Positions 1-64,000 of a stretch of DNA of 64,000 nucleotides are shown here, piece after piece; the first letter of the stretch is position 1, and each line of letters begins with the position of its first letter. A program made the position numbers and the translations under genes. Source of the stretch: a virus (Duplodnaviria > Caudoviricetes); IMG/VR virus record IMGVR_UViG_2595698890_000001, positions 14,752-78,751 of that record. One strand, written 5' to 3'. The notes under the pieces were generated by a model. That model was not told the DNA's origin, made no database searches, and worked only from the letters and a program-made list of their open reading frames with translations.

Positions 1-2
1 GT

Positions 3-1301
3 TTCTGGAGAAAAGAGCCCCCAGTGATGGACGAGAACGGCAAGCTTATCAAGGGTGGGATGTTCCCACACCAGCTTGAGTTCTGGGAATCCGAGAGCTT
101 CATCAAGGCTCTTGTTACTGGGTACGGTGGGGGAAAGACTTTCACCGCTGGTAAGTGGTCGATAGCGATGGCTCTTACTAACTCGGGCATACCATTCATG
201 TGTGTGTCCCCATCGTACAAGGTTGCCCGTAAAACGATAGTAATCACCATCAAGGAGTTGCTGCAAGGCAAGCAGACTCTTCTTGAAGGCTTCAGCTGGA
301 AGTACAACAAGTCGGATTGGGAGTTCCTGATCCGATACCGTGGGCGTGAGGGGATCATCTGGATTGGCTCTGGGGACGACCCGGACGCGCTTAAAGGTCC
401 TAACTTGTGTGGCGCTCTGATCGATGAGCCGTTCATACAGCCGCGTGAAGTATTCGAGCAGATGCTCGCTCGTGTACGTCACCCGGGGGCAGTGCAGAAG
501 CACATCGGACTAACAGGAACACCCGAGGACCTTAACTGGGGTTACGACATCACTGAAGGCGACGAGAAAGACAACTTCGACGTACACCTAATCCAAGCAT
601 CCTCGAAAGAGAACAAGGCTCTGGACAAGGAGTACACGGAGCGTCTGGAACGCGGTCTTAGCGAGCAAGCGGCAGAATCATACGTTAGTGGTAAGTTCGT
701 TCCGCTGGCTAAGGGTCGTGTTTACTACGGGTTCTCGCGTGAGCGTAACGTTATGGAGTTCCCGGAAATTCCTAAAGGCGCTGAAATTGGCTTTGGTCTC
801 GACTTCAACGTGAACCCAATGTCGGCGGCTATGTTCTGGACACTCAATGGACACATCCACTTCTTTGATGAGATCCTGCTACCGAACTCGGACACTTACG
901 ACATGTGTGAGACTATACTCGACCTGTACGGAGAGTACCGTCCAGTCTGTTACCCGGATGCTACCGGACGTAAGCGCCAAACTAACGCCGCTGCTGGTAT
1001 GACCGACTTCCGTATAATTAAGGATGAGTACAAGATTAAGATTAACGTTGGTTCTGTGAACCCTCCTAAGCGTGACCGATTCAACATCGTGAACGGAAAG
1101 CTTAATCCTAAGAAGGGTTTGCCGACTATGACCGTCTCCCCTAAGTGCTCGAAGATGATCCGTTACATGGAGTCATATTCACACGAGAAGATGAACCAAC
1201 AGGAAGAAATGTCACACATTCTTGATGCAATGGGCTACCCTGTAGCTCGACTATTCCCACTTAACATGCGTGCCGAGATTAAGAAACTGGCAGGTCACTA
1301 A
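3..1301 (+). CDS. terL: Terminase large subunit (frame open from the window edge, so the true start is probably just upstream)
   Basis: Walker A GYGGGKT, Walker B LIDE, GTPE coupling motif, RNase H-like nuclease GLDFN and HILDAMGY; frame reads FWRKEPPVM from position 3. Confidence 0.95.
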   Translation, partial: FWRKEPPVMDENGKLIKGGMFPHQLEFWESESFIKALVTGYGGGKTFTAGKWSIAMALTNSGIPFMCVSPSYKVARKTIVITIKELLQGKQTLLEGFSWKYNKSDWEFLIRYRGREGIIWIGSGDDPDALKGPNLCGALIDEPFIQPREVFEQMLARVRHPGAVQKHIGLTGTPEDLNWGYDITEGDEKDNFDVHLIQASSKENKALDKEYTERLERGLSEQAAESYVSGKFVPLAKGRVYYGFSRERNVMEFPEIPKGAEIGFGLDFNVNPMSAAMFWTLNGHIHFFDEILLPNSDTYDMCETILDLYGEYRPVCYPDATGRKRQTNAAAGMTDFRIIKDEYKIKINVGSVNPPKRDRFNIVNGKLNPKKGLPTMTVSPKCSKMIRYMESYSHEKMNQQEEMSHILDAMGYPVARLFPLNMRAEIKKLAGH

Positions 1302-1313
1302 GGAGTTTTACTA

Positions 1314-2858
1314 ATGGCTAAAAAGTCTAAGCAGGAAGAAGTTAAAACAATCCCTGCGAAAGAAATCGAATACAAGCACCCAACGTACCACGCCAAGATC
1401 AAGCGTTGGCAGAAGAACCGTTTAGTGTGTTCGGGTACAGACAAGGTTAAAGAAGCGGGCGAGACCTTGCTGCCAAAACTAGAGGGGCAGAGCTCTTCTG
1501 AGTACGAAGCGATGGTTGTCCGTGCTAACTTCTTCCCGGGAGCACTGCGTGCCCTGCACGGTACTAACGGTATGATTCATGCCAAGAACCCGACCATCAA
1601 CTTTCCAGAAAGTAAGCTACACCATCTTACTAATATTGGTCTGTCAGGGTCCTCTATCGCTGAAGTGGCGGAGGAGATCACTGAAGAGCAGATGCTGCAA
1701 GGCTGGGTGGGGATATTTGCTTTCTACACGCACACTGAGGGTGTAGGGGAGCTGAAGCCGTTCCTCTCGGTAATTCAAGCGGAGAGTATCTGGGACTGGC
1801 GCTTTGCTTTAGTAAACGGCGTCAAGCAGCTAACCTACGTTAAGTTCGTGGAGCTGGTAGCGTCTGAGAACTCGAACATGTTCTACACGGAGATGGTCCA
1901 ACAGGTAACACAGCTCTGGTTAGACAAAGACGGCAAGCTTAACCACCGTATCTGCCAGAAGGTCAAGAAGGGTGAAGGTGGTGAGAGCCACTGGATTCAG
2001 AAGCAGGGCGGCGCTGTTTTAGTAAGAGGTAAGCAGGTCGAGGGCGTTCCTTTCCGCCTGATCGGTGCTCGTAAAATGTCGGGCAAGCCTGAAGAAGCGC
2101 CTATCGAGCCTATCGTAGACGTGAACATCTCGCACTACATCACCTCTGCCGACTTGGAGCAAGGTCGCCACTTCACGGCATTGCCAACACCGTACATCTG
2201 TTCCGCTGCGGTGGATGCCGATAAAGAGTTCCGAATCGGTGGATACAACTGCTGGGTGATCCCGGAAGCGGACGCTAAGGTAGGCATGCTTGAGTACACC
2301 GGGCAGGGTCTGCTCTCGCTGGAGAAAGCCGACACTGAGAAGAAGTGGGAAATGGCGGTTCTGGGTGCGCGTATGCTCCAGAACGACAAGAAAGCCAACG
2401 AGTCAAAGGATACGGTTCGACTGCGACAGACTGGTGAGAACAGCATCGTTACTAACGTCGCTCGCCAGTGCTCGACAGCACTCACTTACTTGATCCGCGA
2501 GTTCGTAGCTCCTTGGACACTGGTATCCTCCACGGAGAAGGTAAGCTTCGTACTCACCACGGACTTCCTTACTATCGAGATCTCCACGGATATGCTCAAC
2601 TCAATGGCAGCATTGGTGGCTACGGATAAGATGTCTATGGAAACGTTCTTCTACAACTTGCAGCGTGGCGGTATCTACGAAGCGGGTACGACTATCGAGA
2701 AGGAGCTGGAGCGTATCGAGAAGATGCGAGAGAAGGACCCCGCTCTTACTAAACGTAAAGGCGACGTGGTAGACCTCGATGAAGATGAGGTGGAGAACGA
2801 CCACGTAGACAACCGTGACAAGTCCAAGGACAAGGACGATGGTAAAGGGGAAGAATAG
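1314..2858 (+). CDS. Portal protein (DUF4055-like)
   Basis: Directly follows terL; 514 aa; NISHY-SADLEQGRHFTALPTPY segment typical of DUF4055 portals; AGGAG RBS. Confidence 0.85.
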   Translation: MAKKSKQEEVKTIPAKEIEYKHPTYHAKIKRWQKNRLVCSGTDKVKEAGETLLPKLEGQSSSEYEAMVVRANFFPGALRALHGTNGMIHAKNPTINFPESKLHHLTNIGLSGSSIAEVAEEITEEQMLQGWVGIFAFYTHTEGVGELKPFLSVIQAESIWDWRFALVNGVKQLTYVKFVELVASENSNMFYTEMVQQVTQLWLDKDGKLNHRICQKVKKGEGGESHWIQKQGGAVLVRGKQVEGVPFRLIGARKMSGKPEEAPIEPIVDVNISHYITSADLEQGRHFTALPTPYICSAAVDADKEFRIGGYNCWVIPEADAKVGMLEYTGQGLLSLEKADTEKKWEMAVLGARMLQNDKKANESKDTVRLRQTGENSIVTNVARQCSTALTYLIREFVAPWTLVSSTEKVSFVLTTDFLTIEISTDMLNSMAALVATDKMSMETFFYNLQRGGIYEAGTTIEKELERIEKMREKDPALTKRKGDVVDLDEDEVENDHVDNRDKSKDKDDGKGEE

Positions 2859-3976
2859 TGGCGAACATTAGTGACAATCTGGCGGTAGTATTAGCTGACC
2901 ACCAGATTGATCTCTACCGCTACGAAGCAAATCAGCGGCAGGACATTGCCGCTTTTCTGCTGGCTATGGCGGACGAGATTAGAAAAGCTATTATCAGCGC
3001 GGACGTAGAATCCGTTCCTTTTGTTACTAAGAAGAAGCTCAATGCTTTACTAAAAGAGATTGAGCAGATCATCAAGCAGTACTACCGCGACGCACGTGAC
3101 TACCACCTCGGGGAACTGAAAGAGCTCAGTGTCCTTGAATACGCGGCGGCAGCTGCTAACATTAACAGCGTGGTGGGTGTTACCGTCTTCGAGACGTTCC
3201 TTACTAACCACTTCCTAGAGAGCGTAGTTAGTAATGTTCTAATCGAGGGCGCTCCATCAAAAGAGTGGTGGGCTCGACAGGCTACGGACACGATGGAGAA
3301 GTTCGTAGACCAGATCCGAATGGGCGTGGCTCTAGGTGAGACTAACGATCAGCTGATTAAACGTGTTCTAGGAAACTTCACAGGCACGTATAGTAGGAGG
3401 AAGTTAGCGGACGGGACTACCAAACGCTACGGCAACTACGAAGGCGGAATCTTAAATGGCTCTCGCAGCAATGCTTCTACTTTAGTAAGAAGCTCTGTTC
3501 AGGCGATTGCCAATGATGCTAAGATGCGCCTGTACGCAGCTAATGATGACCTGATTTACGGATACCAGCAACTATCAGTTCTGGACCTCAAAACTTCAGA
3601 CATCTGCATCGCACGTAGTGGCTTAGCTTGGACGGTTGACGGAAAGCCTATTGGCAATCACAAGAAGCGTTTCCGTATCCCACCGCTACACTGGAACTGT
3701 CGGTCACTGCTCATGCCTATTCTCAAGTCGTGGCAAGATATGCCCGGCAAAGTGGTTACAAGTTTACCGGGGAGTATGCAAGCTAGCATGGATGGATTAG
3801 TTAGTGCGTCTGAGACGTATGAAGATATGCTAAAACGACGCTCGGATCGTGAGGTACGCCAAGTACTCGGTCCAGCTCGATACAAGTTATGGAAGGCTGG
3901 CAAACTAAGCCTACGTGACTTAACTGATCAAGATGATCGCCCATTAACATTGAAACAACTTCGAGAACGTGTTTAA
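2858..3976 (+). CDS. Minor head / head morphogenesis protein (SPP1 gp7 / Mu F family)
   Basis: LD-KTS-IC and PPLHWNCRS motifs; position after the portal. Confidence 0.9.
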   Translation: MANISDNLAVVLADHQIDLYRYEANQRQDIAAFLLAMADEIRKAIISADVESVPFVTKKKLNALLKEIEQIIKQYYRDARDYHLGELKELSVLEYAAAAANINSVVGVTVFETFLTNHFLESVVSNVLIEGAPSKEWWARQATDTMEKFVDQIRMGVALGETNDQLIKRVLGNFTGTYSRRKLADGTTKRYGNYEGGILNGSRSNASTLVRSSVQAIANDAKMRLYAANDDLIYGYQQLSVLDLKTSDICIARSGLAWTVDGKPIGNHKKRFRIPPLHWNCRSLLMPILKSWQDMPGKVVTSLPGSMQASMDGLVSASETYEDMLKRRSDREVRQVLGPARYKLWKAGKLSLRDLTDQDDRPLTLKQLRERV

Positions 3977-4023
3977 AATACACCTCGAAATTTACTAACC
4001 GTAAAAACCTAAAGGAAGTAATC

Positions 4024-4821
4024 ATGCTTAAATTCCGTGTTGCTAAAATCGACGACGTTGAAGAACAATTCCGCCACCTGTACATCCAGCAAGCGGATGG
4101 CTCTTTTCAGCTTGGTGTTGAAGGTGCTGTAGATAAAACTAAGGTAGATGAGTTCCGTAACACAAATACCAATCTAACTCAGCAAAAAGAGCAGTTAGAG
4201 CAGCAACTACAGCAAATGGCACAGCAATTCGATGGTCTTGATCCAGAAAAAGCTAAAGAAGCTATGGAGATGATGAACAAGATCCGCGACCAGAAGCTAA
4301 TCGAAGAAGGTAAGATCGAAGAGCTTATCGAAGCGCGTACCAAAGACATGATGACCAATCATCAATCGCGTGAGCAAGAGCTAACTGGCTCTATCAAAGA
4401 GTGGGAAACTAAGTTCGGCAACCTGCAAGGTCAATACCGTAAGCTGCGTATCGGTTCAGACATCCTAGGCTCGCTAGACAAGATCGGTAAGATCCACGGT
4501 TCATCTCGTGACATCATCACCGACCTAGCGGCTCAAGTTTGGCATCTGGGTGACGACGACAAGCTCGTCGCTATGAAGGGCGACCAGAAAGTCTACAGCC
4601 CTACGGACGCAACCAAGCCGCTTACTCCTGAAGAGTGGTGTCTACAGCTTGCGAATGACCGTCCGTACCTGTTCGAGTCAACTACTACAATGGGTAGCGG
4701 TCAAGGCGGTCAATCTGGTGGTCAGCACGTTAAGGGTGTGATCAGCGGTGACGACATGGATGCTTTCGAGCAGAACTTGGAAGCAATCGCAGCTGGTGAA
4801 GTTCAAGTTAACGTCGGTTAA
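4024..4821 (+). CDS. Capsid scaffolding protein
   Basis: Coiled-coil, acidic, PYLF followed by a Gly-rich linker; lies just before the major capsid gene. Confidence 0.75.
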   Translation: MLKFRVAKIDDVEEQFRHLYIQQADGSFQLGVEGAVDKTKVDEFRNTNTNLTQQKEQLEQQLQQMAQQFDGLDPEKAKEAMEMMNKIRDQKLIEEGKIEELIEARTKDMMTNHQSREQELTGSIKEWETKFGNLQGQYRKLRIGSDILGSLDKIGKIHGSSRDIITDLAAQVWHLGDDDKLVAMKGDQKVYSPTDATKPLTPEEWCLQLANDRPYLFESTTTMGSGQGGQSGGQHVKGVISGDDMDAFEQNLEAIAAGEVQVNVG

Positions 4822-4844
4822 TTTTTACTAAGATTAAAGTGCAT

Positions 4845-4869
4845 AAAGCCACCTTCGGGTGGCTTTTTT
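4845..4869 (+). terminator. Intrinsic terminator
   Basis: AAAGCCACC-TTCG-GGTGGCTTT followed by a T tract. Confidence 0.9.
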
Positions 4870-4889
4870 AGTTTTTATTAATAAGAGGC

Positions 4890-4920
4890 TTGACGACTGT
4901 CTGTATTTGGGTTTTATAAT
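4890..4920 (+). promoter_or_regulatory. Sigma70-like promoter for the major capsid gene
   Basis: TTGACG-N19-TATAAT directly after a terminator; the spacer is long. Confidence 0.5.
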
Positions 4921-5026
4921 GTAACCAACAAAGCAAAACTTACTTAACGGCGGGGTCGTTATTTAAGGGTTTCGGGGAAACCATGCGAACTAACTTTATT
5001 AAACGACAACACGAGGATTTAGCACT

Positions 5027-6154
5027 ATGGCTAATACTTTAGAAGCTGTCGCCCCGAAGCTGTTAGCTCAGGGCTTGATGGCACTTCGCGGCACGAACGT
5101 AATGCCTACTTTAGTAAACCGCGACTATGATCGTGATTTAGCAGCCAAGGGTCTGACAGTGGATATTCCAATCCCTTCAGCTGTTCCTACGCAGGACGTT
5201 GCACCGGGCGCAACTCCTCCAAACACTGGCGACATCGCACCTACTGTAGCGAAAGTTACACTAGACAAGTGGAAAGAAGCACCGTTCTACCTAACGGATA
5301 AAGACGTTAAGCAATCTATGAACGGCATTATCCCACTACAGGCATCTGAAGCGGTTAAGTCTCTAGTAAACGACGTGAACGCCGACATCCTTGGTAAGTA
5401 CACTTCAGTTTACGGCATGGTTGGTACTCCGGGTGTGACTCCATTCGGTTCAAACACTAAAGAAGCAACGGACGCTCGTACTAAGCTGAACATCCAGCTT
5501 GCACCGGGTCAAGACCGTCGTTTCGTTATGGACCCATCTGCGGAAGGTAACGCGCTTAACCTACGTGCATTTAACGACACTAACTTCGCAGTAACTGCGC
5601 AAGACGTTCGTGACGGTAAGATGGCTCGTAAACTTGGCTTCGACTGGGCGATGGATCAACAAGTACCTGTACACGCAGCTGGTCTTTCCACTGCGGCTGT
5701 TAACGGTGCTGGTCAGACTGGCAACCAACTTGCGTTCGACGGCGGTGTTAACGCTGCGGATGGCGGTGCTGCTGTTAAAGCTGGTGACATCTTCACAATT
5801 GCGGGCGACGCACAGACTTACGCCGTAGTTGCAACAACTGGCGCTAAAGCTGGTACTTTGACAATCACTCCGTCTATCAAGAAAGCTCCGGCTGACGACG
5901 CTGTGATCACGTTCAAACCTACTCACACTGTTAACTTGGCATTCCACCGCGACGCGTTCGCATTCGCATCTCGTCCTCTGGCTGACCAAACTACAGGCTT
6001 GGGCAACATCATCCGTACAGCTACAGACCCAGTCACTGGTCTTGCTCTACGTCTTGAAATCAGCCGTGAGCACAAACGTACTCGCTTCTCGTACGACCTA
6101 CTATGGGGTTCTTCTCTAGTACGTCCTGAGCTTGCAGTCCGCGTTGCTGGCTAA
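5027..6154 (+). CDS. Major capsid protein (P22 coat-like, with a beta-rich insertion domain)
   Basis: VNRDYD, NLAFHRDAFAFASRPL and YDLLWG-VRPELAVR patterns; highly biased codon usage. Confidence 0.9.
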   Translation: MANTLEAVAPKLLAQGLMALRGTNVMPTLVNRDYDRDLAAKGLTVDIPIPSAVPTQDVAPGATPPNTGDIAPTVAKVTLDKWKEAPFYLTDKDVKQSMNGIIPLQASEAVKSLVNDVNADILGKYTSVYGMVGTPGVTPFGSNTKEATDARTKLNIQLAPGQDRRFVMDPSAEGNALNLRAFNDTNFAVTAQDVRDGKMARKLGFDWAMDQQVPVHAAGLSTAAVNGAGQTGNQLAFDGGVNAADGGAAVKAGDIFTIAGDAQTYAVVATTGAKAGTLTITPSIKKAPADDAVITFKPTHTVNLAFHRDAFAFASRPLADQTTGLGNIIRTATDPVTGLALRLEISREHKRTRFSYDLLWGSSLVRPELAVRVAG

Positions 6155-6170
6155 TAGCGTATAGGTTGTT

Positions 6171-6203
6171 GGGAGGTTGGGATTGCCCACCTCCCTTTTA
6201 TTT
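6171..6203 (+). terminator. Intrinsic terminator after the capsid gene
   Basis: GGGAGGT...ACCTCCC stem plus T tract. Confidence 0.7.
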
Positions 6204-6221
6204 TAACTTTAGTAAACGAGA

Positions 6222-6695
6222 GTGAATACTATGTCTCAGATTGACCCACAAGCGATGCTACAACAAATCCTAGCGGCTTCAGACAATCCGGCTGAACTGC
6301 TACGTGGTGCGATTCAAGAAGCTACACAAGGCGAAGGCTCTAACAACGCACTTCAACAGCTTGAGCTACTTCTTGCGTCTGATCCAAACCTTAAACACCA
6401 CCTACGCTCTGGTATGCCTTCAAGCATCCAAGAGCACTTGCGTTACGTACCGACTATGGTAGTTACATTCCAGAACGGTGCGTTCGGTGGTAAGCCAATG
6501 ACGATCAATACTTCTGACTTCGACGAAGCCCTGCACAAAAAAGTGGATATGGGTAAGTTAGTAAAAGAAGCTGCTAAGCAGGTAGAAGATGCTACGGACG
6601 AAACGGATGAGACTCCAGCGCCGGAAGAGCCAGCTGCTACTACTGAAGGCGAAGAAGATGCGCCTAAGCAACAACGCTCACGCCGTCGTAACTAA
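6222..6695 (+). CDS. Hypothetical protein with acidic then Arg-rich C-terminus
   Basis: Open frame with phage-like codon bias; bounded by terminators. Confidence 0.7.
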   Translation: MNTMSQIDPQAMLQQILAASDNPAELLRGAIQEATQGEGSNNALQQLELLLASDPNLKHHLRSGMPSSIQEHLRYVPTMVVTFQNGAFGGKPMTINTSDFDEALHKKVDMGKLVKEAAKQVEDATDETDETPAPEEPAATTEGEEDAPKQQRSRRRN

Positions 6696-6726
6696 TCTTA
6701 GTAACCGACACGGCGGATTGATTTGG

Positions 6727-6755
6727 AAGGAGGGGGCTTAGCTTCCTCCTTTTTT
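6727..6755 (+). terminator. Intrinsic terminator
   Basis: AAGGAGGGGGC-TTA-GCTTCCTCCTT plus T tract. Confidence 0.75.
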
Positions 6756-6773
6756 CGTTTCTGGAGATTACTA

Positions 6774-7316
6774 ATGGCAATCACATTAATTGTACAACAG
6801 GGTCGATACCCTATTCGCGGAGCTAACTCCTTCGCATCGGTGGAAGACGCCGACAAGTACCACGAGCAACGCGGTAACACTGCGTGGGCTGCATTAGACG
6901 CGGAGAAGAAGAAAGCCGCTCTGATCCAAGCTACGGACTTCATGGCAAGCGAGTACAAGTTCCGTGGGCGCAAGATGTATGGTGAGGAGGACCCTAACTT
7001 CCCACAACTTCTTCCTTTCCCACGCGCAGAGTTTGAGGACTCGGCTGGAAGATCTATTCTGGAGACACCGCAGGGTGTTGTCCGTGCGACTATCGAACTG
7101 GCTGGATACGCTTCAAAAGCACCTCTTTATCCGAACCAAGAGAACTTACTAAAACCGGGTGGTCTAGTTACTAAAGTTAGTAAGAAGACTGGTCCTCTCA
7201 CAACAACATACGAATACGCCAACCCTACTGTGGTACTGCGAGCTACACCTCTCTACAAGAAGGTCACTGGCTGGCTTAACGACTACACGTACACCAATGG
7301 TCGTATTCTTCGCTAG
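6774..7316 (+). CDS. Head-tail adaptor (DnaT-like ssDNA-binding family)
   Basis: GANSFASVEDADKY, KAALIQATDF, LPFPR motifs; GGAG RBS before ATG 6774. Confidence 0.8.
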   Translation: MAITLIVQQGRYPIRGANSFASVEDADKYHEQRGNTAWAALDAEKKKAALIQATDFMASEYKFRGRKMYGEEDPNFPQLLPFPRAEFEDSAGRSILETPQGVVRATIELAGYASKAPLYPNQENLLKPGGLVTKVSKKTGPLTTTYEYANPTVVLRATPLYKKVTGWLNDYTYTNGRILR

Positions 7317-7327
7317 GAGTCTTATTA

Positions 7328-7720
7328 ATGTCTGATTATACGCAGGAGCAACTAGACGCTCTAGAGAGTATCAAGGAAGCGGGAGCACAGTTCGACTTTG
7401 AACTTACCACGTTCACAGCGAATGCAGACAAGCCTTGGTTGGGTGGCACACCCTCAGTAGAGAAGATTCAACTGTGGGCGTGCGTGTTCCCCACTAGCAC
7501 CGCTCCCGGGGCTCTGACGGAGCCAATGTTCAAGGAAGGTACTTTAGTGGAGTCGCAGACCCGGTACATATTAGCCGCTGGGGAGGGTAGAACAACTCAC
7601 CCTAATACTGGCGACGTTATGAAAAACCTAGAGGGTAGCGATTGGTCTATAATGGGATGCGCCCCGCTGACTGTTAATGGTCAAGGCGCAATAATTTACG
7701 AGATGGTAGTAAAACGATGA
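7328..7720 (+). CDS. Head closure / head-tail joining protein
   Basis: Size and synteny; beta-rich C-terminus. Confidence 0.6.
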   Translation: MSDYTQEQLDALESIKEAGAQFDFELTTFTANADKPWLGGTPSVEKIQLWACVFPTSTAPGALTEPMFKEGTLVESQTRYILAAGEGRTTHPNTGDVMKNLEGSDWSIMGCAPLTVNGQGAIIYEMVVKR

Positions 7721-8136
7721 GAGATGATAAAGCTAGAGAGGTGATCGGGGAGGCGTTAGTCGCAGGTCTAAAAGCTGCGGGTATCACCATCGACATAGCT
7801 CAAGAGGGCTACCCGTACAAGGGCGCAGCCAATAAGCCTTACCTTGAGGTGAGCTTCAGTGTAGAATCGACCTCAAGCCAGTCATTAGGCGACGCGGGGA
7901 ACAGGTCTTTTGTCCGCGACGGTGTTTTCCACGTGAACGTATACACACCCTTCACAGCTGGAAGCTCTGCCATGACAGCTCACATTTACGCACTGGCAGT
8001 GCGTGATATTTTCGAAGGCAAGCACTTCGATAAAGACCTTTGGTTCTGGGAGTGTAAAGCCTCGCCAGCGGGATCAAACGGAAACTATAACGTAGCGTAC
8101 GCGAACTGCGCGTTCCGCTTTCAAGAAATCAAGTAG
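7717..8136 (+). CDS. Tail terminator protein
   Basis: 139 aa directly before the tail tube gene; GVFHVNVYTP pattern. Confidence 0.65.
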   Translation: MRDDKAREVIGEALVAGLKAAGITIDIAQEGYPYKGAANKPYLEVSFSVESTSSQSLGDAGNRSFVRDGVFHVNVYTPFTAGSSAMTAHIYALAVRDIFEGKHFDKDLWFWECKASPAGSNGNYNVAYANCAFRFQEIK

Positions 8137-8147
8137 GAGACTTACTA

Positions 8148-9590
8148 ATGAGTGATACTAACCGTGTCCGCCTCGCTCTCTTAGAAGAGACGACGCCGGG
8201 AGTAGTACCAAACAATCCAAAGTTAGTTCGCCAGCGTGTTACTAACATGCCATCCCTAGCGGTGACACCGGAAACCATCGAGTCTGAAGAGCTGGACCCA
8301 ACTATGCAGACTACCGACCTTATCAAAGTAGGTCAGTCTGTAGGTGGTGAGTTCGGCATGGAGTTCAGCTACGACGCACAGCACCAAGTTATGATCGGCG
8401 TTATGCGTAACAGCTGGCAGAGCCATCCTAAATACGTGGGTGCTGAAGTTGGTTCTATCTCAGCTGGTAAGGTTGGCGTTGCCAACAAGACCGCTATCAT
8501 CCCGGTAGGTGCGCTAGTACTGCTGAAGAACTTCAACAACAATGCCAACAATGGCGTGAAGCCTGTTACGGCGGCTACGGCTACTGAGATCACCGCTACT
8601 GGTGTTGTGGCTGATACTGCTAAGACAGGAAAAGAAGCTGTACACCTTGTGGGATTCCAAGGCGGTGAGGGGCACTTGTCTGTCAGTGCGAATGAGCTTA
8701 TCGCGTCGTCGGCGTCTAACTTAGATTTTACTAAGTTTAAACTTCGTCCGGGCTCACTGATCAAGATCGGTGGGAAGGACGCAGCTAACCGCTTCGCCAC
8801 AGCCGCTGTTAACGGTCGCGTGCGTGTTACTAAGGTTGAGGCTAAGAAGTTAACGCTCACTGGCTTACCGACAGGCTGGGCAGCTGACAACGGCAGTGGC
8901 AAGAAGATCTCTGTGTGGACACCGGAAGACGACATCGTTAACGGTGTGGCTACTAAAGCGTTTACGTTCCTACAATCGTTCCTAGACCACAACCCGGTAA
9001 CACACCAAGTGTTTAACGGGATGCGCGTGGGTACTCTTAACATGGAGATGCGTTCTAAACAGATCGTAACCTTCACTGTTAACGCACAGGGTACTAAGGG
9101 CGACATCAACGAGTCAGGCATCGCAAGCGCGACTATCTTGCCAGCGTCTACGGACACAGTGATCAACACCTCTTCAAACGTAGCTGAGCTACAAGAGAAT
9201 GGGCAGAAGATCGCGGGTCCTAACTACGTTACGGGCATGACACTGGCGCTTAACAACAACCCACGTAACGATGACGCTATCGGCTACGAGTCTCCGGTTA
9301 ACATCGGTGGCGGTACGTTCCAGCTAACAGGCACCATCAATACCTACTTCGGCAACAAGTCGATGGTAGAGAAGGTGATCAACAACAGCGAGACTTCATT
9401 GCTGCTGGACTTCGTAGACGGAAGCGGTCAGCACGTCGTATGGGATGCTCCTCGCGTTAAGTACTCAAGCGGCTCTCCGGCGGTATCGGGCAAGAACGCG
9501 GCTAACACCGCAGACTTGGGCTACACCGCTCTGAAACACCCAGATTACGGCTACACACTGGGCGTACAGAAGTTCCGCTACATGGAATAA
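8148..9590 (+). CDS. Major tail tube protein with an internal accessory domain
   Basis: N-terminal EETTPGVVP and IESEEL motifs of siphovirus tail tube proteins; synteny. Confidence 0.85.
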   Translation: MSDTNRVRLALLEETTPGVVPNNPKLVRQRVTNMPSLAVTPETIESEELDPTMQTTDLIKVGQSVGGEFGMEFSYDAQHQVMIGVMRNSWQSHPKYVGAEVGSISAGKVGVANKTAIIPVGALVLLKNFNNNANNGVKPVTAATATEITATGVVADTAKTGKEAVHLVGFQGGEGHLSVSANELIASSASNLDFTKFKLRPGSLIKIGGKDAANRFATAAVNGRVRVTKVEAKKLTLTGLPTGWAADNGSGKKISVWTPEDDIVNGVATKAFTFLQSFLDHNPVTHQVFNGMRVGTLNMEMRSKQIVTFTVNAQGTKGDINESGIASATILPASTDTVINTSSNVAELQENGQKIAGPNYVTGMTLALNNNPRNDDAIGYESPVNIGGGTFQLTGTINTYFGNKSMVEKVINNSETSLLLDFVDGSGQHVVWDAPRVKYSSGSPAVSGKNAANTADLGYTALKHPDYGYTLGVQKFRYME

Positions 9591-9629
9591 TCATGGCACT
9601 TGCGCCAAGAGCAAACCTAGAATAAGATC

Positions 9630-9654
9630 AAAGCGTCCATAAGGGCGCTTTTTT
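9630..9654 (+). terminator. Intrinsic terminator
   Basis: AAAGCGTCC-ATAA-GGGCGCTTT plus T tract. Confidence 0.8.
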
Positions 9655-9679
9655 AATATTAGTAAACAAGGAAAATACA

Positions 9680-10135
9680 ATGAGTAAGAAGACTTCTCCT
9701 TTCGCTATGTTCCGCACTTCAACTAACGACGAAGTGAATGGTGTGTATATTAACTACGGCTCGTTCCGTATCCTAGTAGCACACGCTGGCGGCGCAAACA
9801 CGGCGTACAACCGCCTACTTATGAAACTGGGCAAGCCTTACCTTAAACTGATCAAGTCGGGCAACCTACCGGAAGAAGTTACGAAAGAGATCGATGAGAA
9901 GCTGTACACGCAGACTATCATCAAAGGCTTCCAAGTGGATGAGTCCAAAGACGGTGATAAAGAGCCTAAGTGGGTATCGGGCATCCCGACTGAAAGCGGT
10001 GAAGTTGTCGAGTACAACGAAGAGAACTTAGTAAACCTACTGCGTGAGCTTCCGCACCTATTTGACGACATCAAAGCATTCGCTATGGATATGTCGAACT
10101 TCAAACCGGATCTGGAAGTAGCGAAGGGAAACTAA
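9680..10135 (+). CDS. Tail assembly chaperone (gpG-like)
   Basis: Between tail tube and tape measure genes; ends in slippery G GGA AAC. Confidence 0.85.
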   Translation: MSKKTSPFAMFRTSTNDEVNGVYINYGSFRILVAHAGGANTAYNRLLMKLGKPYLKLIKSGNLPEEVTKEIDEKLYTQTIIKGFQVDESKDGDKEPKWVSGIPTESGEVVEYNEENLVNLLRELPHLFDDIKAFAMDMSNFKPDLEVAKGN

Positions 10136-10524
10136 TAGAGTTTCTAAAGCATGAGCTGGAATATGGCGACGAGGATTTTGATTTCATCATCGAAGCTGCA
10201 ATCGAAGCCGGAGACGAGATTCCGGCTTTTGCTTCAGAAGCGCCTAAACTACTCGACCCGTTAGTACCGACTTATAACATGTTCTGGGATATGTACCGTT
10301 TCAGACGTGTTACCGCTAAAAACGATTTTGTCCCTTGGGAAGTCCTTGAACGGTTCGCCGCTAAGTATGGGATTAGAGAGCTAGGAGAGTTTCAAGAGTT
10401 CTGCGAGCTGTTTCGAGAAATGGAAATGGTCTACCTAGAACACCTAGCTGAGCAACACGAGCAGGAAGAAACTCAACAGCAAGAACAAGGGGGACAGCAT
10501 GGCGGATTTCTCGGAAATTCCTAA
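10126..10524 (+). CDS. Frameshifted extension of the tail chaperone (gpGT-like), reached by -1 frameshift
   Basis: The -1 frame after GGGAAAC (10126-10132) is open (KLIEFLKHELEYG...) and joins the 10279..10524 ORF. Confidence 0.8.
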   Translation, partial: GKLIEFLKHELEYGDEDFDFIIEAAIEAGDEIPAFASEAPKLLDPLVPTYNMFWDMYRFRRVTAKNDFVPWEVLERFAAKYGIRELGEFQEFCELFREMEMVYLEHLAEQHEQEETQQQEQGGQHGGFLGNS

Positions 10525-10954
10525 AGACCTAAAGCATTTCGCTTTTACCCTCCAAGCTAATACCGAAACAAGGCAGCGTGAAGTTGCCTTGACCATCACC
10601 CGCGAGTTAATGCAGCGAAACCCTAAGAAGACGGGCAGATCCGCAGGTAACTGGCAGGTTGGTGTCAATCGCCCTAAGTTAATAGTCCAACAGCCCCCTG
10701 ACCCTGAGAAGGTGAAGTCGGGTGAGATTAGTAAAACAGCCCACGCATTCGTAAAGAAACAACTTACTAAAGCTATAAGCGAAATTACTAATTCTCCACT
10801 GTCTGGATTAGACCCGGTGATTTACATTAGTAATACTGTTGACTATGTAGTTTTACTAAACACCATTCGACCATCAAAACAGGCAGCACCGGGTTGGATT
10901 GAATCCTCTATCCGTTTCGGAGCTGACAGCACTAAAGGGGTGAAATTAAGCTAA
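10499..10954 (+). CDS. Tail completion / neck protein (HK97 gp10-like)
   Basis: PKKTGRSAGNWQVG and IYISNTVDY motifs. Confidence 0.75.
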   Translation: MADFSEIPKDLKHFAFTLQANTETRQREVALTITRELMQRNPKKTGRSAGNWQVGVNRPKLIVQQPPDPEKVKSGEISKTAHAFVKKQLTKAISEITNSPLSGLDPVIYISNTVDYVVLLNTIRPSKQAAPGWIESSIRFGADSTKGVKLS

Positions 10955-50197: not shown

Positions 50198-50247
50198 GGG
50201 CGGCGTATAGGTGGTTGTCACCAACAATGCCTAGGAGGGATGACATA

Positions 50248-51796: not shown

Positions 51797-51818
51797 AGGG
51801 GACTTCGGTCCCCTTTTT
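51797..51818 (+). terminator. Intrinsic terminator
   Basis: AGGGGAC-TTCG-GTCCCCTTTTT. Confidence 0.9.
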
Positions 51819-51822
51819 CGTG

Positions 51823-51897
51823 CCTAAGTGCCTAGGAGGTTTCGACCTAAGTGCCTAGGCATATTCAGCCTAAGTGCCTAGGAGGTTTGTGCCTAGG
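51823..51897. repeat. 23-bp tandem array A1 (CCTAAGTGCCTAGG core, 3 units plus a partial)
   Basis: Units start at 51823, 51846 and 51869. Confidence 0.95.
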
Positions 51898-52085
51898 TGT
51901 TTTAGTAAAATACCCCGATACCGGGATTTCCGTGATCGGACCGCAAAGCCCACCACGTACAGCTTTCAGCCGAATTTACACCGTTTTGGTGATCACCCCT
52001 AAACCTGAAAAAACTTCAAAATAACTGTTTACTATTAGTAAAAATAGCGTATAGTTCACCGGGTAAGGCAAAGAGGAGAAACACC

Positions 52086-52187
52086 ATGCGCTTACTTATC
52101 GAGGGAGCAGTTTTATCGCTGGTTTGTATTTTACTAATGTGCAGCGATTCCCTAATAGATATAGCTTACAACTTTTTAGTAAAATAA
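52086..52187 (+). CDS. Small hydrophobic protein (33 aa)
   Basis: GAGGAG RBS; MRLLIEGAVLSLVCILLMC... Confidence 0.5.
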   Translation: MRLLIEGAVLSLVCILLMCSDSLIDIAYNFLVK

Positions 52188-52201
52188 TTTTTAGTAAAGT
52201 G

Positions 52202-52230
52202 TTGACGGATTGATTTTAGTTTAGTAAAGT
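52202..52230 (+). promoter_or_regulatory. Sigma70 promoter of the ParB-like gene
   Basis: TTGACG-N17-TAAAGT; TTAGTAA overlaps the -10. Confidence 0.65.
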
Positions 52231-52275
52231 TAGTAATCAGAAACACAGTCACTCACAGTAAAGAGGATTCACAAA

Positions 52276-53322
52276 ATGACTAAACGCGCTTCAGAACTGG
52301 CAAAAAACACTGCCTTCAACGATTTGTTTTCTTCTAGCAAAACAGGTTTCAACGTAGCAGCTATGGCGGACGGCGATAAGATTAAGAAAGACTTCCGAAC
52401 GTACGCTATCCACCCTTCAGCAATCCGTATCATCGACGGCTTTAACTCTCGTATGGATTACGGTGATATTGAAGAGCTGGCGATGAGCCTTAAAGCGGAG
52501 CACGAGAACAACGGTCAAGCCCTGATCCAACCGCTTATCTTGATGTCTGTTAAGGGCGAAAAAGACAAGTACGACCTGATCGCCGGGCACCGTCGCATGA
52601 TGGCTGCACAGTGGTTATGGGAAAACCTACAGTACGACGTGGGCGGCTTGGCATCTCGCATCTACAAATACGATACGCCTTACCACCACATGATCGGCGT
52701 GAACATGCGTGAGAACGACCAGAAGCCGCTAACCCCTATCGAGGAAGCGATCAACTTCAAGCGTTTACGCGATGCTGACTACACGCTGGAGCAGATCCGA
52801 GACCTTAGCGGGCGTTCTATCTGCCACATTAGTAAGCGCCTAACACTACTAACCGGGGCGGATGAAGTTGTAGACGCGGTAGCTGAAGGCGTGCTTCAGT
52901 CGCAGATGGCAGCGGAAATCGTTGTGCGCCGTAAAGATGACTTGGAAGGACAGCGCGAGCTAGTCGAGAAAGCTAAGTCAGGTAAGGAAGGCAAGCGGGC
53001 GGTACGTGAGACTCTTAAAGCCGAGATGAACGCCAGCGGACGCAAGAAACGCGCTAAGAAAGTTTCCACCGGGACCGCAAAACCGGAACCAGCTAATAAA
53101 CGTCTTACCCAGAAGGAGCACGACGAGTTAGTAAAATCACACTCGGTATGGGTAGCCGATTTTGTCAAGGCGTACGGCGTGAAAGTACAGCACGACGAAG
53201 TAATGAAGAAAGCCGCCGAGTTCCGCAAGGAAGGCGATGCGGGCTACCGCAAGCTGACCAAGATGCTGATCGAGTTTGGCAAGATCGACGGCGTGGGTTT
53301 GGTCCTTGGCATTGACCTATAA
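52276..53322 (+). CDS. ParB-like protein (ParB/Srx domain plus HTH)
   Basis: IQPL, IAGHRR, REN-QKPLTPIEEA, HTH LEQI-GRS-HISKRL. Confidence 0.85.
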   Translation: MTKRASELAKNTAFNDLFSSSKTGFNVAAMADGDKIKKDFRTYAIHPSAIRIIDGFNSRMDYGDIEELAMSLKAEHENNGQALIQPLILMSVKGEKDKYDLIAGHRRMMAAQWLWENLQYDVGGLASRIYKYDTPYHHMIGVNMRENDQKPLTPIEEAINFKRLRDADYTLEQIRDLSGRSICHISKRLTLLTGADEVVDAVAEGVLQSQMAAEIVVRRKDDLEGQRELVEKAKSGKEGKRAVRETLKAEMNASGRKKRAKKVSTGTAKPEPANKRLTQKEHDELVKSHSVWVADFVKAYGVKVQHDEVMKKAAEFRKEGDAGYRKLTKMLIEFGKIDGVGLVLGIDL

Positions 53323-54318: not shown

Positions 54319-54337
54319 ATTATTTTACTAATTGGTG

Positions 54338-54365
54338 TTGACATGGTGCGTCATTTTAGTAATAT
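54338..54365 (+). promoter_or_regulatory. Sigma70 promoter
   Basis: TTGACA-N16-TAATAT; TTAGTAA overlaps the -10. Confidence 0.65.
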
Positions 54366-55603: not shown

Positions 55604-56080
55604 ATGAGGACAAAGTTTACTAATGATGAGTTAGACCGTATCGAAGCGGCTACCGGGTATCGCATACGCTTGAGATCCGAGCACCCATATTACAGCGCGT
55701 ACTTAAAAGCTCGCCAGCGTTGTCTCGACCCGGATCACGAATCTTATCCTTGGTATGGCGGGAGAGGTCTAACTTTCGGGTTTAACGGTGCCGTGGGTTT
55801 TACGCAGTATTGCGAAGAGCTTGGGAGGAAGCCATCCCCTAAGCACACGGTAGACCGTCGGGATAATGATCTCGGCTACGTCCCCGGGAATATACGTTGG
55901 GCAAGCCCAGCCCAGCAGGGAGCAAACCAGCGAAAGACCAAAAAGTACCCTTACAAGGGTAGGATGATGACCGCGAGGCGTATTAGTAAGATAACGGGGC
56001 TCAGTAAGGCTGTTATCGCTGACCGATGGCGACGTGGCGAACGCGGGGACCGCTGGCTAAGACCCGCCCAACGTGCCTAG
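55604..56080 (+). CDS. HNH endonuclease-like protein
   Basis: RQRC...YGGRG...HTVDRRDN-GY-PGNIRWA-QQ-NQR. Confidence 0.85.
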   Translation: MRTKFTNDELDRIEAATGYRIRLRSEHPYYSAYLKARQRCLDPDHESYPWYGGRGLTFGFNGAVGFTQYCEELGRKPSPKHTVDRRDNDLGYVPGNIRWASPAQQGANQRKTKKYPYKGRMMTARRISKITGLSKAVIADRWRRGERGDRWLRPAQRA

Positions 56081-56267
56081 GAGGTTTCAACCTAAGTGCC
56101 TAGGAGGTTTCAACCTAAGTGCCTAGGAGGTTTCAACCTAAGTGCCTAGGAGGTTTCAACCTAAGTGCCTAGGAGGTTTCAACCTAAGTGCCTAGGAGGT
56201 TTCAACCTAAGTGCCTAGGAGGTTTCAAAAATTTTGCTTAGGAGGTTTCAAAAATTTTGCTTAGGTG
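56073..56267. repeat. 23-bp tandem array A2 (GTGCCTAGGAGGTTTCAACCTAA, 6 perfect units plus degenerate ones)
   Basis: Perfect units from 56073 to 56210, variants to 56267; no spacers. Confidence 0.98.
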
Positions 56268-56657
56268 ATCTCATCCAAACGACCTAGGCATATTGAGATT
56301 ATTGTCAATAGGCGGGATGTTACTGATAGGATTGTTAATAGATAAAATTGTTAATAGATAAAACTATTAGTAAACAATTCTATCAATAGATAATATTGTT
56401 AATAGTTAAAACTGTTAGTAGTTAAAACTATCAATAAACCCGGCGGACCGGGAAGCCGTCGCCAGCTTCCCCGGGGACCGGGACCGGGAAGCGATCCCCG
56501 GCGTGGTGCCTATTACCACAAAATACGGATCAACTACCAAACTATTTTTTATAGTTTTTAGTAATAACCATATAACAAAATAGTTTACTAAAATGATTGA
56601 AGTTGCCCGGCGTTTTTAGTAAACGCGTGCGCACGCGGTCTATTACTATTAGTAAAA

Positions 56658-56715
56658 AAATATTTGTTGAAAGTTGAAAAAACATGTTGTACCCGGACCG
56701 CGTTTTTAGTAATAT
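56658..56715 (+). promoter_or_regulatory. Early sigma70 promoter, copy 1
   Basis: AAATATTTGTTGAAAGTTG upstream element, TTGTAC-N17-TAATAT. Confidence 0.8.
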
Positions 56716-57029: not shown

Positions 57030-57087
57030 AAATATTTCTTGAAAGTTGTATTTTGCTATTGTACCCGGACCGGGTTTTTAGTAAGAT
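57030..57087 (+). promoter_or_regulatory. Early sigma70 promoter, copy 2
   Basis: Same upstream element; TTGTAC-N17-TAAGAT. Confidence 0.8.
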
Positions 57088-57125
57088 AACCATATCAAAG
57101 CAAACAAGCATTAAGGCAGTCACTT

Positions 57126-59041: not shown

Positions 59042-59345
59042 GGGCGCATTTTGCGCCCTTTTTTGTATCCGGGAAGGCGTACAGCTTTATTAGTAAATAA
59101 TAGCTTTTCGCTGTACGTGCACCGCCGATCTAGGGCGATTTTTCAATTTGGCGCGAAACGGAACTTTTAATACCATAGTAAGGGTTTTACTAAAAACCGC
59201 TTAAAACGCCATACAACGCGAATTTGGGCTATATTACTAAAACTCAATTTACTAATTACTACTAGTAAAAAGAGTTATAAAAATATTTGTTGAAAGTTGC
59301 GTTTTGCTATTGTACCCGGACCGGGTTTTTAGTAATATATCTCAC
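59042..59345 (+). repeat. About 300-bp terminator-promoter cassette, copy 1 (includes early promoter 3)
   Basis: Closely similar to 60523-60827; TTGTAC 59310, TAATAT 59333. Confidence 0.9.
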
Positions 59346-60522: not shown

Positions 60523-60827
60523 GGGCGCATAATGCGCCCTTTTTTGTGCCTCCAAACCGCGTACAGCCTTTTAAGTAAAAACAACCTTTTCGCTGTACGT
60601 ACACCGGGCAACTAGGGCGATTTTTCAATTTGGCGCGAAACGGAACTTTTAATACCATAGTAAGGCTCTTACTAAAAACCGCTTAAAACGCCATACGGCG
60701 CGAATTTGGGCTATATTACTAAAACGCGTTTACCCGGTTTAATATTAGTAAAATAGTTCTAAAAATATTTGTTGAAAGTTGTGTTTTGCTATTGTATCCG
60801 GTCCGCTAATTTAGTAATATATTCACA
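60523..60827 (+). repeat. About 300-bp terminator-promoter cassette, copy 2 (includes early promoter 4)
   Basis: Closely similar to 59042-59345; TTGTAT 60792, TAATAT 60815. Confidence 0.9.
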
Positions 60828-62882: not shown

Positions 62883-62901
62883 ACAATTTACACTGTAAAT
62901 C

Positions 62902-62927
62902 GCCCGGGTAAGTTATCCGGGCTTTTT
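62902..62927 (+). terminator. Intrinsic terminator ending the early block
   Basis: GCCCGGGTAA-G-TTATCCGGGC plus T5; related hairpin at 63599-63628. Confidence 0.8.
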
Positions 62928-63885
62928 ATTGTCCGCCGTTTACTAATGATAGATTACTAATTATCGTTCTTCCCTTCCCCGGCTATCGTTCCCCGGTAGC
63001 AGTCAAACGCCCGCAATTATTTTCACCTCGACATAAACGCGCCGCGATTCCCTATATGATAATATTGTATATAGCAGTTTTCCCCATAGTGATAAATCCG
63101 TTATTATGTATGTAATTATCCGTGTATATTCTTTCGCTATTAATACTATTGTTATTAGTAAAACAATATTCCTTTTTGCCTATATCATCCATCTACTGAA
63201 TCTATAAAAAGATAGTAACTATAATATCATTAGCAAGCGGGCGATTTTGGGCGTTATCCGGGCTCACACGGGCGATTTACATATATACGCGGCTCATCGT
63301 ATTGGTGAACTCTTCCCGGGCGCTTACAATGCCATACAGACAACCGCGCTATTGAGCAATCTATAATTAATCCTTTCTCTTTACTAAAACATTGAACAAC
63401 AATCAACAATCAATTATAATCTATATACACGGTAGGGAAGCGCGATTTCCCTATATACGGAAATTCACTATATACACATTAGGCGGTCACTATGTCAGAT
63501 ATAACATACGGTTCAATTATCGGCGGGCTCTTCCTTGCTATCGTTTACGGTTGTCAGCTAATGGCGGCAATGTAAATCACATCACTCATTACTAAAACGC
63601 CCGGGCTATTGTTCCGGGCTTTTCTTTTCCCGTCTTCCCCTATATACAATCCTATCAATTAAACTTCTCTTCCCGGACCGACTCGACCAACGGACCAGCG
63701 ACCAACGCACAAACCTATTGAGCAATTACTCAATGAGCAATTCCCTATTGAGCAATCTCTCATTAGTTATTGACCATTCTATCTATTAACAATCCTATCG
63801 TTTGCGCAATTGATAACATTATTAATTAATAGTTCTGTCAGTTGCGCAATTGAGTAATCTATCAATAAGGGGGTCCATACCCCCC

Positions 63886-64000
63886 GGGTGCCGCCTTACT
63901 AACGAGCTGGGTGCCGCCTTACTAACGAGCTGGGTGCCGCCTTACTAACGAGCTGGGTGCCGCCTTACTAACGAGCTGGGTGCCGCCTTACTAACGAGCC
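63886..64000. repeat. 23-bp tandem array B (GGGTGCCGCCTTACTAACGAGCT x5, runs to the window edge)
   Basis: Units at 63886, 63909, 63932, 63955 and 63978. Confidence 0.98.

Follow-up and report, generated by a model that had tools for sequence, protein, structure and literature searches.

The stretch of DNA analysed here, which we call the window, is 64,000 nucleotides long and corresponds to bases 14,752-78,751 of a 78,751-bp virus record (IMGVR_UViG_2595698890_000001). Its source is a Vibrio siphophage of the genus Mardecavirus, lytic by annotation; the assignment was taken from the records of two relatives, both classed in that genus. Our subject is the seven-letter word TTASTAA (S = C or G), that is, TTACTAA and its reverse complement TTAGTAA, which the original prediction, made from the letters alone, had described as saturating the whole window. 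The Vibrio phage R01 is 95.8% identical to the window over 12 kb, and SSP002, VP06 and some 38 other Vibrio phages are about 78% identical to it (over 12 kb). Outside the genus the polymerase has no relative above 60% identity, and comparison within the genus therefore spans nucleotide identities of 78-95%. All genes annotated in the relatives are on a single strand, the G+C content of the genome is about 50%, and no Rfam family was found in the window or in locus L006. Coding and non-coding figures refer to 104 genes called from open reading frames (ORFs), unless a first set of 100 ORFs is named. The features of the window that concern the word directly are as follows.

1-64000, no strand: field of exact TTASTAA sites, 240 copies (125 TTACTAA and 115 TTAGTAA on the plus strand)
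22353-22929, no strand: densest cluster, with 11 sites within 600 bp, of which the first six read TTACTAA
38024-38863, plus strand: thyA, with two TTASTAA sites, its product 83% identical in amino acids to Vibrio ThyA
51902-52236, no strand: seven-site cluster upstream of a ParB-like gene, some sites abutting or overlapping sigma-70-like hexamers
54325-54365, plus strand: best sigma-70-like promoter of the early region, TTGACA-16-TAATAT
63886-63999, plus strand: tandem array of five perfect 23-bp units, each with TTACTAA, forming the last 114 bases of the contig

Abundance and layout of the word

The 240 copies of TTASTAA in the window compare with a mean of 9.62 (standard deviation 2.88, maximum 16) in 100 dinucleotide-preserving shuffles, none of which reached the observed count. 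Markov models of order 0 to 4 gave expectations of 8.1, 10.4, 12.7, 26.7 and 92.6, of which the last is inflated because the sub-words of TTASTAA itself feed the model. The word was the commonest 7-mer in the window, and the next unrelated 7-mer occurred 47 times, about five times fewer. In the whole genome there were 294 copies, against 9 of a reversed control word. The density was 3.7 per kb, or about one copy per 270 bp. Thus the saturation that the original prediction had proposed was borne out, and the enrichment is stronger than it had claimed. Its count of 33 copies in the first 11 kb was reproduced exactly, and its manually counted coordinates held except for one position that was off by one (1308, not 1309). 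Its description of the genes as C/G-ending was not correct, as the codon table shows no marked C/G-ending in this genome.

The word is sharply defined. Each of its 36 one-mismatch variants occurred 0-13 times, neither depleted nor enriched, and an A or T in place of the central S was seen 5 and 6 times. Around the sites there was no extended similarity beyond a preference for T or A in the flanks. The sites were spaced somewhat more evenly than at random, with coefficients of variation of 0.87 and 0.83 against 0.99 +/- 0.06, and the largest gaps (1133 and 1168 bp) were below the 5th percentile of random placement. The two centre letters were not evenly distributed by region. On the plus strand, 26 C and 2 G were counted at genome positions 4001-12000, before the window, and copies close to ribosome-binding sites between 17 kb and 62 kb of the window were mostly TTAGTAA.

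The 11-site cluster follows a terminator-like hairpin and spans the start of a spanin-like gene; downstream of it are the genes for a winged helix-turn-helix (wHTH) protein and a replication initiator. The window positions 22,350-22,950 were the top 600-bp interval alike in this phage, SSP002 and R01. The cluster was only modestly unusual, 1.6% of 5000 random placements reaching 11 sites (p = 0.016). Its candidacy as an origin was weakened by this value and by its position in a spanin-like lysis gene. The cluster that had been noticed upstream of parB was confirmed as seven sites, and a sigma-70-like TTGACG-17-TAAAGT lies within it at 52202-52230. SSP002 has a seven-site interval at the corresponding place, from 65201, before its parB at 65699.

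Early in the genome map, where the best sigma-70-like promoters were seen, sites adjoin their hexamers or overlap with them, and sites are also found in the T-tails of terminators. At the promoter 54325-54365, a distance of 6 bp separates one upstream site from the -35 hexamer, and another site overlaps the -10 hexamer. In themselves, promoter-like sites of the early region were not commoner than in shuffles (20 vs 17.6). A repeated early module was seen at about 56655-56700, 57030-57090, 59275-59335 and 60755-60815, in the order TTAGTAA, aaatatttgTTGAAAgttg..ctattgta, a CCGGnCCGG hairpin and tttTTAGTAA; it looks like a promoter and hairpin bracketed by two copies of TTAGTAA.

Several tandem arrays were also observed. 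A perfect 23-bp array of 6.8 copies, GTGCCTAGGAGGTTTCAACCTAA, occupies 56073-56265, with a degenerate copy at 51816-51899, before the ParB region. A 16-bp iteron-like array of six copies (56333-56436) adjoins the former. These two arrays are without TTASTAA save for one site in the 16-bp array, and they could be an origin or partition-like region. The 23-bp array at the contig end occurs in R01 with four units and continues there directly into the sequence that opens our contig, which shows that the genome is circularly closed; in SSP002 the end array was not present.

Selection on the DNA in the phage and rarity of the word in the host

Synonymous codons were shuffled within the 104 genes, such that every protein sequence and the codon usage of each gene were kept. 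In 300 shuffles the count was 23.9 +/- 4.6 (maximum 37), compared to 216 observed. The original prediction had named a loss of enrichment under a codon- and dipeptide-preserving shuffle as its refutation; under this shuffle, which keeps codons and proteins, the enrichment persisted. The sites were distributed over the reading frames as 88 in frame 1, 114 in frame 2 and 4 in frame 3 (100-ORF set), those in frame 3 all being at gene ends because that frame includes an in-frame stop. A large part of the coding capacity for the word has been used: 91 of the 161 L[LV][IMTNKSR] tripeptides in frame 1 (57%) and 118 of the 162 [FLIV][TS][KN] tripeptides in frame 2 (73%) are written as TTASTAA. These tripeptides were themselves in excess over amino-acid shuffles of the 100-ORF set, with 160 vs 110 +/- 11 in frame 1 and 156 vs 74 +/- 8 in frame 2. 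Therefore, the protein sequences have also been bent towards the word.

Between genes the word is denser still, at 11.25 per kb in non-coding and 2.99 per kb in coding DNA, and 73 sites were wholly non-coding where 1.7 were expected by composition. In the genome, 214 sites (73%) fall in coding sequence and 80 outside; in the window, 172 of the 240 lie wholly within ORF-called genes. Many short intergenic gaps hold exactly one site, which is placed either just 5' of the Shine-Dalgarno sequence or in the space separating that sequence from the start codon. The long genes with no site or one site include that of the gp32-like protein and those placed like the scaffold, major capsid and terminase genes of the relatives. 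On the coding strand TTACTAA and TTAGTAA are about equal in number, and this equality, together with the symmetric flanks described below, argues against a signal in RNA.

The word is also conserved between species. In an alignment with SSP002 (77.7% identity, 65,108 aligned bases), 184 of the 246 alignable genome sites were sites in SSP002 as well, when only 24% of all 7-mers were fully conserved. The central C and G were swapped in 14 of those 184 sites. At third codon positions, identity was 0.833 inside TTASTAA and 0.579 outside, which answers the proposal of the original prediction that synonymous positions be compared in related phages. All four of the Mardecaviruses examined were enriched, with 294 copies in this phage, 286 in R01, 300 in SSP002 and 288 in VP06. 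Selection thus acts on the DNA, where it fixes synonymous codons and shifts the amino-acid sequence. The claim that it is the DNA and not the protein that is selected is supported by the codon shuffle, the saturation, the tripeptide excess and the synonymous conservation.

It is extremely improbable, in our view, that the word is a functionless by-product of codon or dipeptide bias, of mutational bias or of the dispersal of one repeat. The order-4 expectation and the presence of some sites in the repeated promoter modules and in one tandem array could be taken in its favour. However, the order-4 figure reflects the word's own sub-words (orders 0-3 give 8-27), the one-mismatch neighbours are at background and no similarity extends around the sites beyond the T/A flanks. 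The codon shuffle and the conservation at synonymous sites also speak against it.

The host does not share the word. In 1.61 Mb of Vibrio DNA (80 loci around thyA from 80 Vibrio species) there were 211 copies, or 0.131 per kb, about 28-fold fewer per kb than in the phage. By composition 335 were expected, and the control word occurred 445 times, so that the word is under-represented in Vibrio. The original prediction had asked whether it was depleted or enriched there, and the answer is a count below the expectation by composition. The thyA gene of the phage, at 83% protein identity to Vibrio ThyA, is a captured host gene. Host thyA contains three sites in total across 75 genes, and the phage copy alone contains two. 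The first is a synonymous recoding of LVT, which is present in 73 of 73 hosts, and the second coincides with LTN, where 53 of the 73 hosts have LTR. Captured host genes thus acquire TTASTAA. Four other Vibrio phages, one of them grown on V. parahaemolyticus, were all at the level of the control word (21/19, 18/28, 44/38 and 32/21, word/control). The host as such therefore does not account for the enrichment as a general effect.

Symmetry of the word and candidate readers

All sites were oriented to TTACTAA, and the sequence 5' of each was compared with the complement of that on its 3' side. From distance 1 to distance 3 the two sides mirrored each other in this phage, in SSP002 and in an unrelated phage, G001, that is described below, with a preference for T at the first two distances and for A at the third. 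T or A is present there at 33-44%, and only 7 bp are fixed. At distance 4 there was an asymmetry in the two Mardecaviruses and not in G001, which is probably an effect of coding phase. The twofold symmetry noticed in the original prediction is in this way supported in three genomes. Flanks of this kind speak for recognition of double-stranded DNA by a twofold-symmetric reader rather than for a reader of single strands, and we consider a symmetric double-strand reader likely from these patterns.

We suggest that TTASTAA may be a positively selected, twofold-symmetric recognition word in double-stranded DNA, with which the Mardecaviruses would mark their own chromosome about once per 270 bp. The reader would be a sequence-specific factor encoded by the phage, most likely a dimeric DNA-binding protein. 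Such a dimer would have to load or nucleate at intervals of a few hundred bases over the entire genome, and the same protein would double as an operator binder where the sites abut early promoters. Among the modes of action, binding is likely to rank first and methylation second. Coating, protection or discrimination by a nuclease, roles raised in the original prediction, are possible. We hold this reading tentatively, as one that may well prove right without being probable yet.

The second enriched phage was found by an IMG/VR pattern scan for three sites close together. G001 is a complete metagenomic contig of 74,118 bp with terminal repeats and 33% G+C, unrelated to Mardecavirus. It has 234 copies of TTASTAA, its top 7-mer, compared to 41 of the control word and 34 by composition, and its codon shuffle gave 54.8 +/- 6.1 vs 195 observed. 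Its frame pattern, T/A flanks and saturation (54% and 68%) match those of the present phage; one stretch of 5.9 kb is without sites. By blastp (E<=0.01) and phmmer --max (E<=5), all that the two phages have in common is a primase, a clamp with its loader, PolA, RecA and a weak helicase match. The nearest relatives of G001 were not enriched. L209, about 50% identical to it in replication genes, has one site in 4 kb, and L140, whose primase is sister to that of G001 (100/99 support), has two in 11.9 kb. Enrichment is thus a labile trait that does not go with the replication module. Two triple-site scans of IMG/VR covered largely the same loci and, among the matches listed, gave one strong case (G001), one moderate case (G003) and one tandem array (G002). 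G003 (L316-L317), a 21.8-kb contig, has 41 evenly spread copies vs 16 of the control word and about 12 by composition; the word is not among its top 7-mers, and no protein similarity to either enriched phage was found in it. In G001, a cluster at positions 168-5238 of locus L122 comprises four S-adenosylmethionine (SAM) methyltransferases together with a sulfotransferase-like protein and a family-2 glycosyltransferase. Two further proteins of the set scanned, outside this cluster, gave MptE-like matches, and G001 also encodes a sigma-70-type factor and a dCMP deaminase. No tRNA was found in the window, in L006 or in four loci of G001.

An identical word with the same T/A flank preference in two phages without a common specific reader would be expected if a host factor reads TTASTAA and unrelated phages converge by using or evading it. 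The under-representation in Vibrio DNA would fit this as well. However, the four other Vibrio phages at control level do not agree with it, and G001 has 33% G+C and close relatives that do not have the word. Nor can a palindrome so scarce in the host serve there as a signal of the Chi type. We consider a host factor improbable.

The genes that were considered as sources of a phage-encoded reader are listed below.

23087-24480, plus strand: wHTH protein (102 amino acids) and replication initiator (360 amino acids), PHROG family phrog_428
30308-31432, plus strand: primase with zinc finger and TOPRIM domain, 374 amino acids, of a family shared with G001
32474-33634, plus strand: repeat protein, 386 amino acids, with two repeats of about 60 amino acids, four RSRRG-type basic motifs and one TTASTAA site in the gene
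51011-51727, plus strand: 'H1-like' protein, 238 amino acids, with a tail rich in Lys, Pro and Ala in its sequence
52276-53322, plus strand: ParB/Noc-like protein, 348 amino acids, with Pfam ParB_N and HTH_ParB, a candidate reader confined to the Mardecaviruses
Genome 8479-9129, 5.6 kb before the window: putative orphan NPPY methyltransferase, 216 amino acids, with motif I EPCCGLC and motif IV TNPPY

The primase bears on a further explanation, in which TTACTAA or TTAGTAA is a strand-specific signal for replication or recombination, read on a single strand by a primase, an initiator or helicase loader, or a resolvase or nuclease, at the spacing of Okazaki fragments on both strands. Both enriched phages encode a T4-like set of primase, clamp, clamp loader, PolA, RecA and SbcCD-type proteins, plus phrog_428. 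No gap exceeds about 1.2 kb, the densest cluster precedes the initiator genes and has six sites that point the same way, and the regional bias of the centre letter would fit. Nevertheless, the flanks are symmetric once oriented by the centre letter, and the dense cluster is only modestly unusual and lies in a lysis gene. The primase family was found at 18 IMG/VR loci, among which only SSP002 and G001 were enriched and 16 of 16 others were not. In a primase tree of 16 rows (L126, L130 and L143, which gave no clean ORF, were left out), two changes are needed to place the enriched pair, and the G001 primase is sister to that of the non-enriched L140. The primase was rejected as reader on these grounds. 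Among the matches listed for the clamp loader, a list in which G001 itself does not appear, 0 of 64 relatives were enriched, and L209 is likewise poor in sites. We assign a low probability to a strand-specific signal.

The proteins proposed as readers in the original prediction (the ParB-like, wHTH, repeat and H1-like proteins) are not backed by the comparison with G001. The ParB-like protein is, from its sequence, a true ParB/Noc relative: its matches to the solved chains of Spo0J, Noc and ParB had E values from 3e-8 to 2e-5, and that to TIGR00180 was below its cut-off. In G001 there was no ParB_N at E<=0.1 and no HTH_ParB at E<=1, so that the protein does not accompany the word in both enriched phages. 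In pooled PHROG scans of 148 proteins (68 of this phage and 80 of G001, with large known enzymes and structural genes left out), the best 25 families by member number were compared, and single-member families were not intersected. Two families were shared within these limits. One is a small protein beside the clamp loader, also present in the non-enriched L209; the other is phrog_428, the sole sequence-specific DNA-binding family detected in both enriched phages. Its presence in both is by remote homology only, and the initiators of this phage and of G001 had no direct phmmer match.

For the repeat protein we found no family, no usable atlas hit and no counterpart in G001 by phmmer or PHROGs, and BLASTP gave no match between it and a basic G001 protein. 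The 238-amino-acid protein likewise had no family and no counterpart in G001 (phmmer, PHROGs). Two single-sequence models were too poor for fold searching (mean predicted local distance difference test scores of 31.5 and 49.9); in the latter, that of the 238-amino-acid protein, the N-terminal helical hairpin alone was moderately confident. A basic motif, (S/T)RSRR(G/P), was observed in three otherwise unrelated proteins: the repeat protein (four copies), the gp32-like single-stranded DNA-binding protein at 40440-41612 (two) and the 238-amino-acid protein (one). It may be a shared docking peptide. The motif was absent from G001.

The NPPY protein matched phrog_799, 'DNA methyltransferase', at E 3e-53, and the copy in SSP002, its only relative found in IMG/VR, is 83% identical. 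As no Pfam, NCBIfam or solved-structure match was found, its substrate class follows from the PHROG label only. No nuclease partner was noticed adjoining the gene. Two HNH genes are homing-type paralogues found in this phage only and located away from the methyltransferase gene; the second, at window positions 55604-56080, gave a six-frame match that reads through one TAG.

This protein could account for the word as an epigenetic mark resembling the highly iterated palindromes (HIPs) of cyanobacteria, which occur together with cognate orphan methyltransferases. It would methylate an adenine in TTASTAA, and what is maintained would be the methylated word rather than a bound protein. Motifs I and IV, the phrog_799 match, the conservation in SSP002 and the lack of a noticed nuclease partner are in agreement with this. 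Elhai 2015 (PMC4390886) also reports that a frequent alternate HIP is accompanied by a methyltransferase of matching specificity. On the other hand, G001 gave no phrog_799 match at E<=1 in six frames and has no [DNS]PP[YFW] motif in any ORF, only the four generic SAM methyltransferases of its glycan-type cluster. The lack of domain and structure matches counts against it too, and in our judgement 216 amino acids leave little room for a domain that recognizes a 7-bp target. Methylation alone does not account for a 25-fold enrichment, and a second reader would still be required. We regard methylation as the mark as rather unlikely, though less so than a host factor or a strand-specific signal.

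For a phage-encoded symmetric factor, which we continue to prefer, the concrete candidates within the Mardecaviruses would be the ParB/Noc-like protein and the NPPY methyltransferase. Several points weigh against such a factor. No reader was found among the candidates compared. G001 has the identical word but no detectable specific DNA-binding protein in common with this phage, so that a homologous phage-encoded reader is unproven, and it is unlikely that two different readers converged on the same 7-mer. The 214 sites inside genes, if bound tightly, would be roadblocks for RNA polymerase. A core of 7 bp is short for a ParB-type helix-turn-helix dimer. Nor does a purely symmetric reader explain the centre letters, which are unevenly distributed by region (26 C and 2 G). 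Either the reader is too diverged or too small for our searches, or the two phages have different readers, or it is a host factor.

A word that overrides codon and amino-acid choice at about 300 places in a 79-kb virus must serve a function that is chromosome-wide. These Vibrio phages are isolated widely and serve as candidates for biocontrol, and no such function is described for them. If the reader exists, it would provide a new specificity for discrimination between self and host. Phage engineering would also be affected, as recoding could silently cripple a phage, and the finding of similar codes in metagenomic viruses would be aided.

Some other genes of this phage were observed in the course of the analysis. 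Three anti-defence families are present: Acb3, a CBASS inhibitor (window 50215-50937, E 1e-79); a protein of 394 amino acids (window 48323-49507) in which a Tad5 domain is joined to a MazG-like pyrophosphatase; and a Tad2-like protein (Pfam, E 1.6e-18), placed at genome 3161-3946 by position only (SSP002 gp012 = DUF2829). An N-terminal domain of phrog_1810 occurs in four proteins (genome 3188-3430, 4713-4889 and 5287-5505, window 43505-43777), whose fusion partners include at least one BRCT domain, in the protein that the annotation of the relatives calls 'DNA ligase' and that has only 163 amino acids. A 205-amino-acid protein (window 47481-48098), following SbcCD-like genes, gave a sub-threshold match (E 0.005) to 6-pyruvoyl-tetrahydropterin synthase of the QueD type, and no other gene of the 7-deazaguanine pathway was seen beside this weak match.

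Comparison with known systems

A restriction-modification site was considered and rejected for TTASTAA: the word is enriched and not avoided, no endonuclease was noticed beside the methyltransferase, and the HNH genes are elsewhere and of the homing type. In the literature we found no description of TTASTAA, or of any hyper-abundant palindrome, in phages, and the PG288 paper contains none of the terms 'methyl', 'palindrom', 'restriction' and 'ParB' (supplements were outside the search in both cases). The stoperators of cluster A mycobacteriophages such as L5 are asymmetric 13-bp sites, a few dozen in number, that occupy short intergenic gaps in the orientation of transcription and serve as binding sites of the prophage repressor. 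Against this background TTASTAA is similar in that many copies of one short word lie along a phage genome. However, it is palindromic, 73% of its roughly 300 copies are inside genes without orientation with transcription, and the phage is annotated as lytic. The stoperator-like network suggested by the original prediction therefore fails as a comparison.

ParB-family proteins bind palindromes of 13-16 bp, which number from one to some dozens. Noc binds dozens of dispersed palindromes, and the KorB operator is an odd-length palindrome with a central S. The likeness to these systems (parS, the Noc-binding site and KorB) lies in the ParB_N and HTH protein encoded here and in the seven sites before its gene. 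In contrast, the core of TTASTAA is 7 bp, there are about 300 sites, and G001 has the same word with no ParB domain. With Chi and DNA uptake sequences TTASTAA shares the features of a short word whose density separates self from foreign DNA and whose sites would each add to the benefit. Those words are asymmetric, oriented and enriched in their own chromosome, whereas TTASTAA is symmetric and under-represented in Vibrio.

A match to the word itself comes from yeast, in which a ChIP-chip motif table gives mTTAsTAA for YAP7 and mTkACTAA for YAP1 (PMC2174516, as listed there). Because a Yap basic leucine zipper (bZIP) motif is identical to TTASTAA, a symmetric dimer with overlapping TTAC half-sites can read it. 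Yap proteins are eukaryotic transcription factors, and no bZIP-like protein was identified in either phage. We take the motif, by analogy, as a lead on the architecture of the reader and not on its family membership.

The closest known kind is HIP1 of cyanobacteria and the alternate HIPs, such as GCGATCGC. According to Xu et al. 2018 (PMC5861425), these short exact palindromes are 15- to 300-fold over-represented, occur within and between ORFs, are conserved beyond background and are under selection, with a function that is debated. An association of HIPs with orphan methyltransferases is mentioned in Elhai 2015 (PMC4390886). TTASTAA resembles them in being about 25-fold over-represented, in both permissible frames, inside and between ORFs, and conserved at synonymous sites. 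The Mardecaviruses also carry the putative orphan NPPY methyltransferase, a candidate for a cognate enzyme, and none was found in G001.

It is possible that lytic phages can evolve a self-marking code like that of the HIPs, a proposal for and against which we find the balance about even. One exact 7-bp palindrome would be brought close to the limit that the proteome permits, in unrelated phages either independently or by transfer with an unrecognised reader, and a symmetric factor would use it to tell phage from host DNA for coating, protection, replication or recombination, or packaging. If this is true, it would add a new layer to phage genome biology and a new constraint on the evolution of phage proteins. 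TTASTAA differs from HIP1 in that it belongs to a lytic phage and not to a cellular chromosome, and in that it is A+T-rich and of odd length with a degenerate centre. It is also denser (one per 270 bp), it uses more than half of its coding capacity, and the host is without the word. The phage could serve as a tractable model for the 30-year-old HIP1 puzzle: its genome is small, it is lytic and culturable, orthologous genomes are available at 78-95% identity, and its captured thyA, in which the word has been gained, adds to that value.

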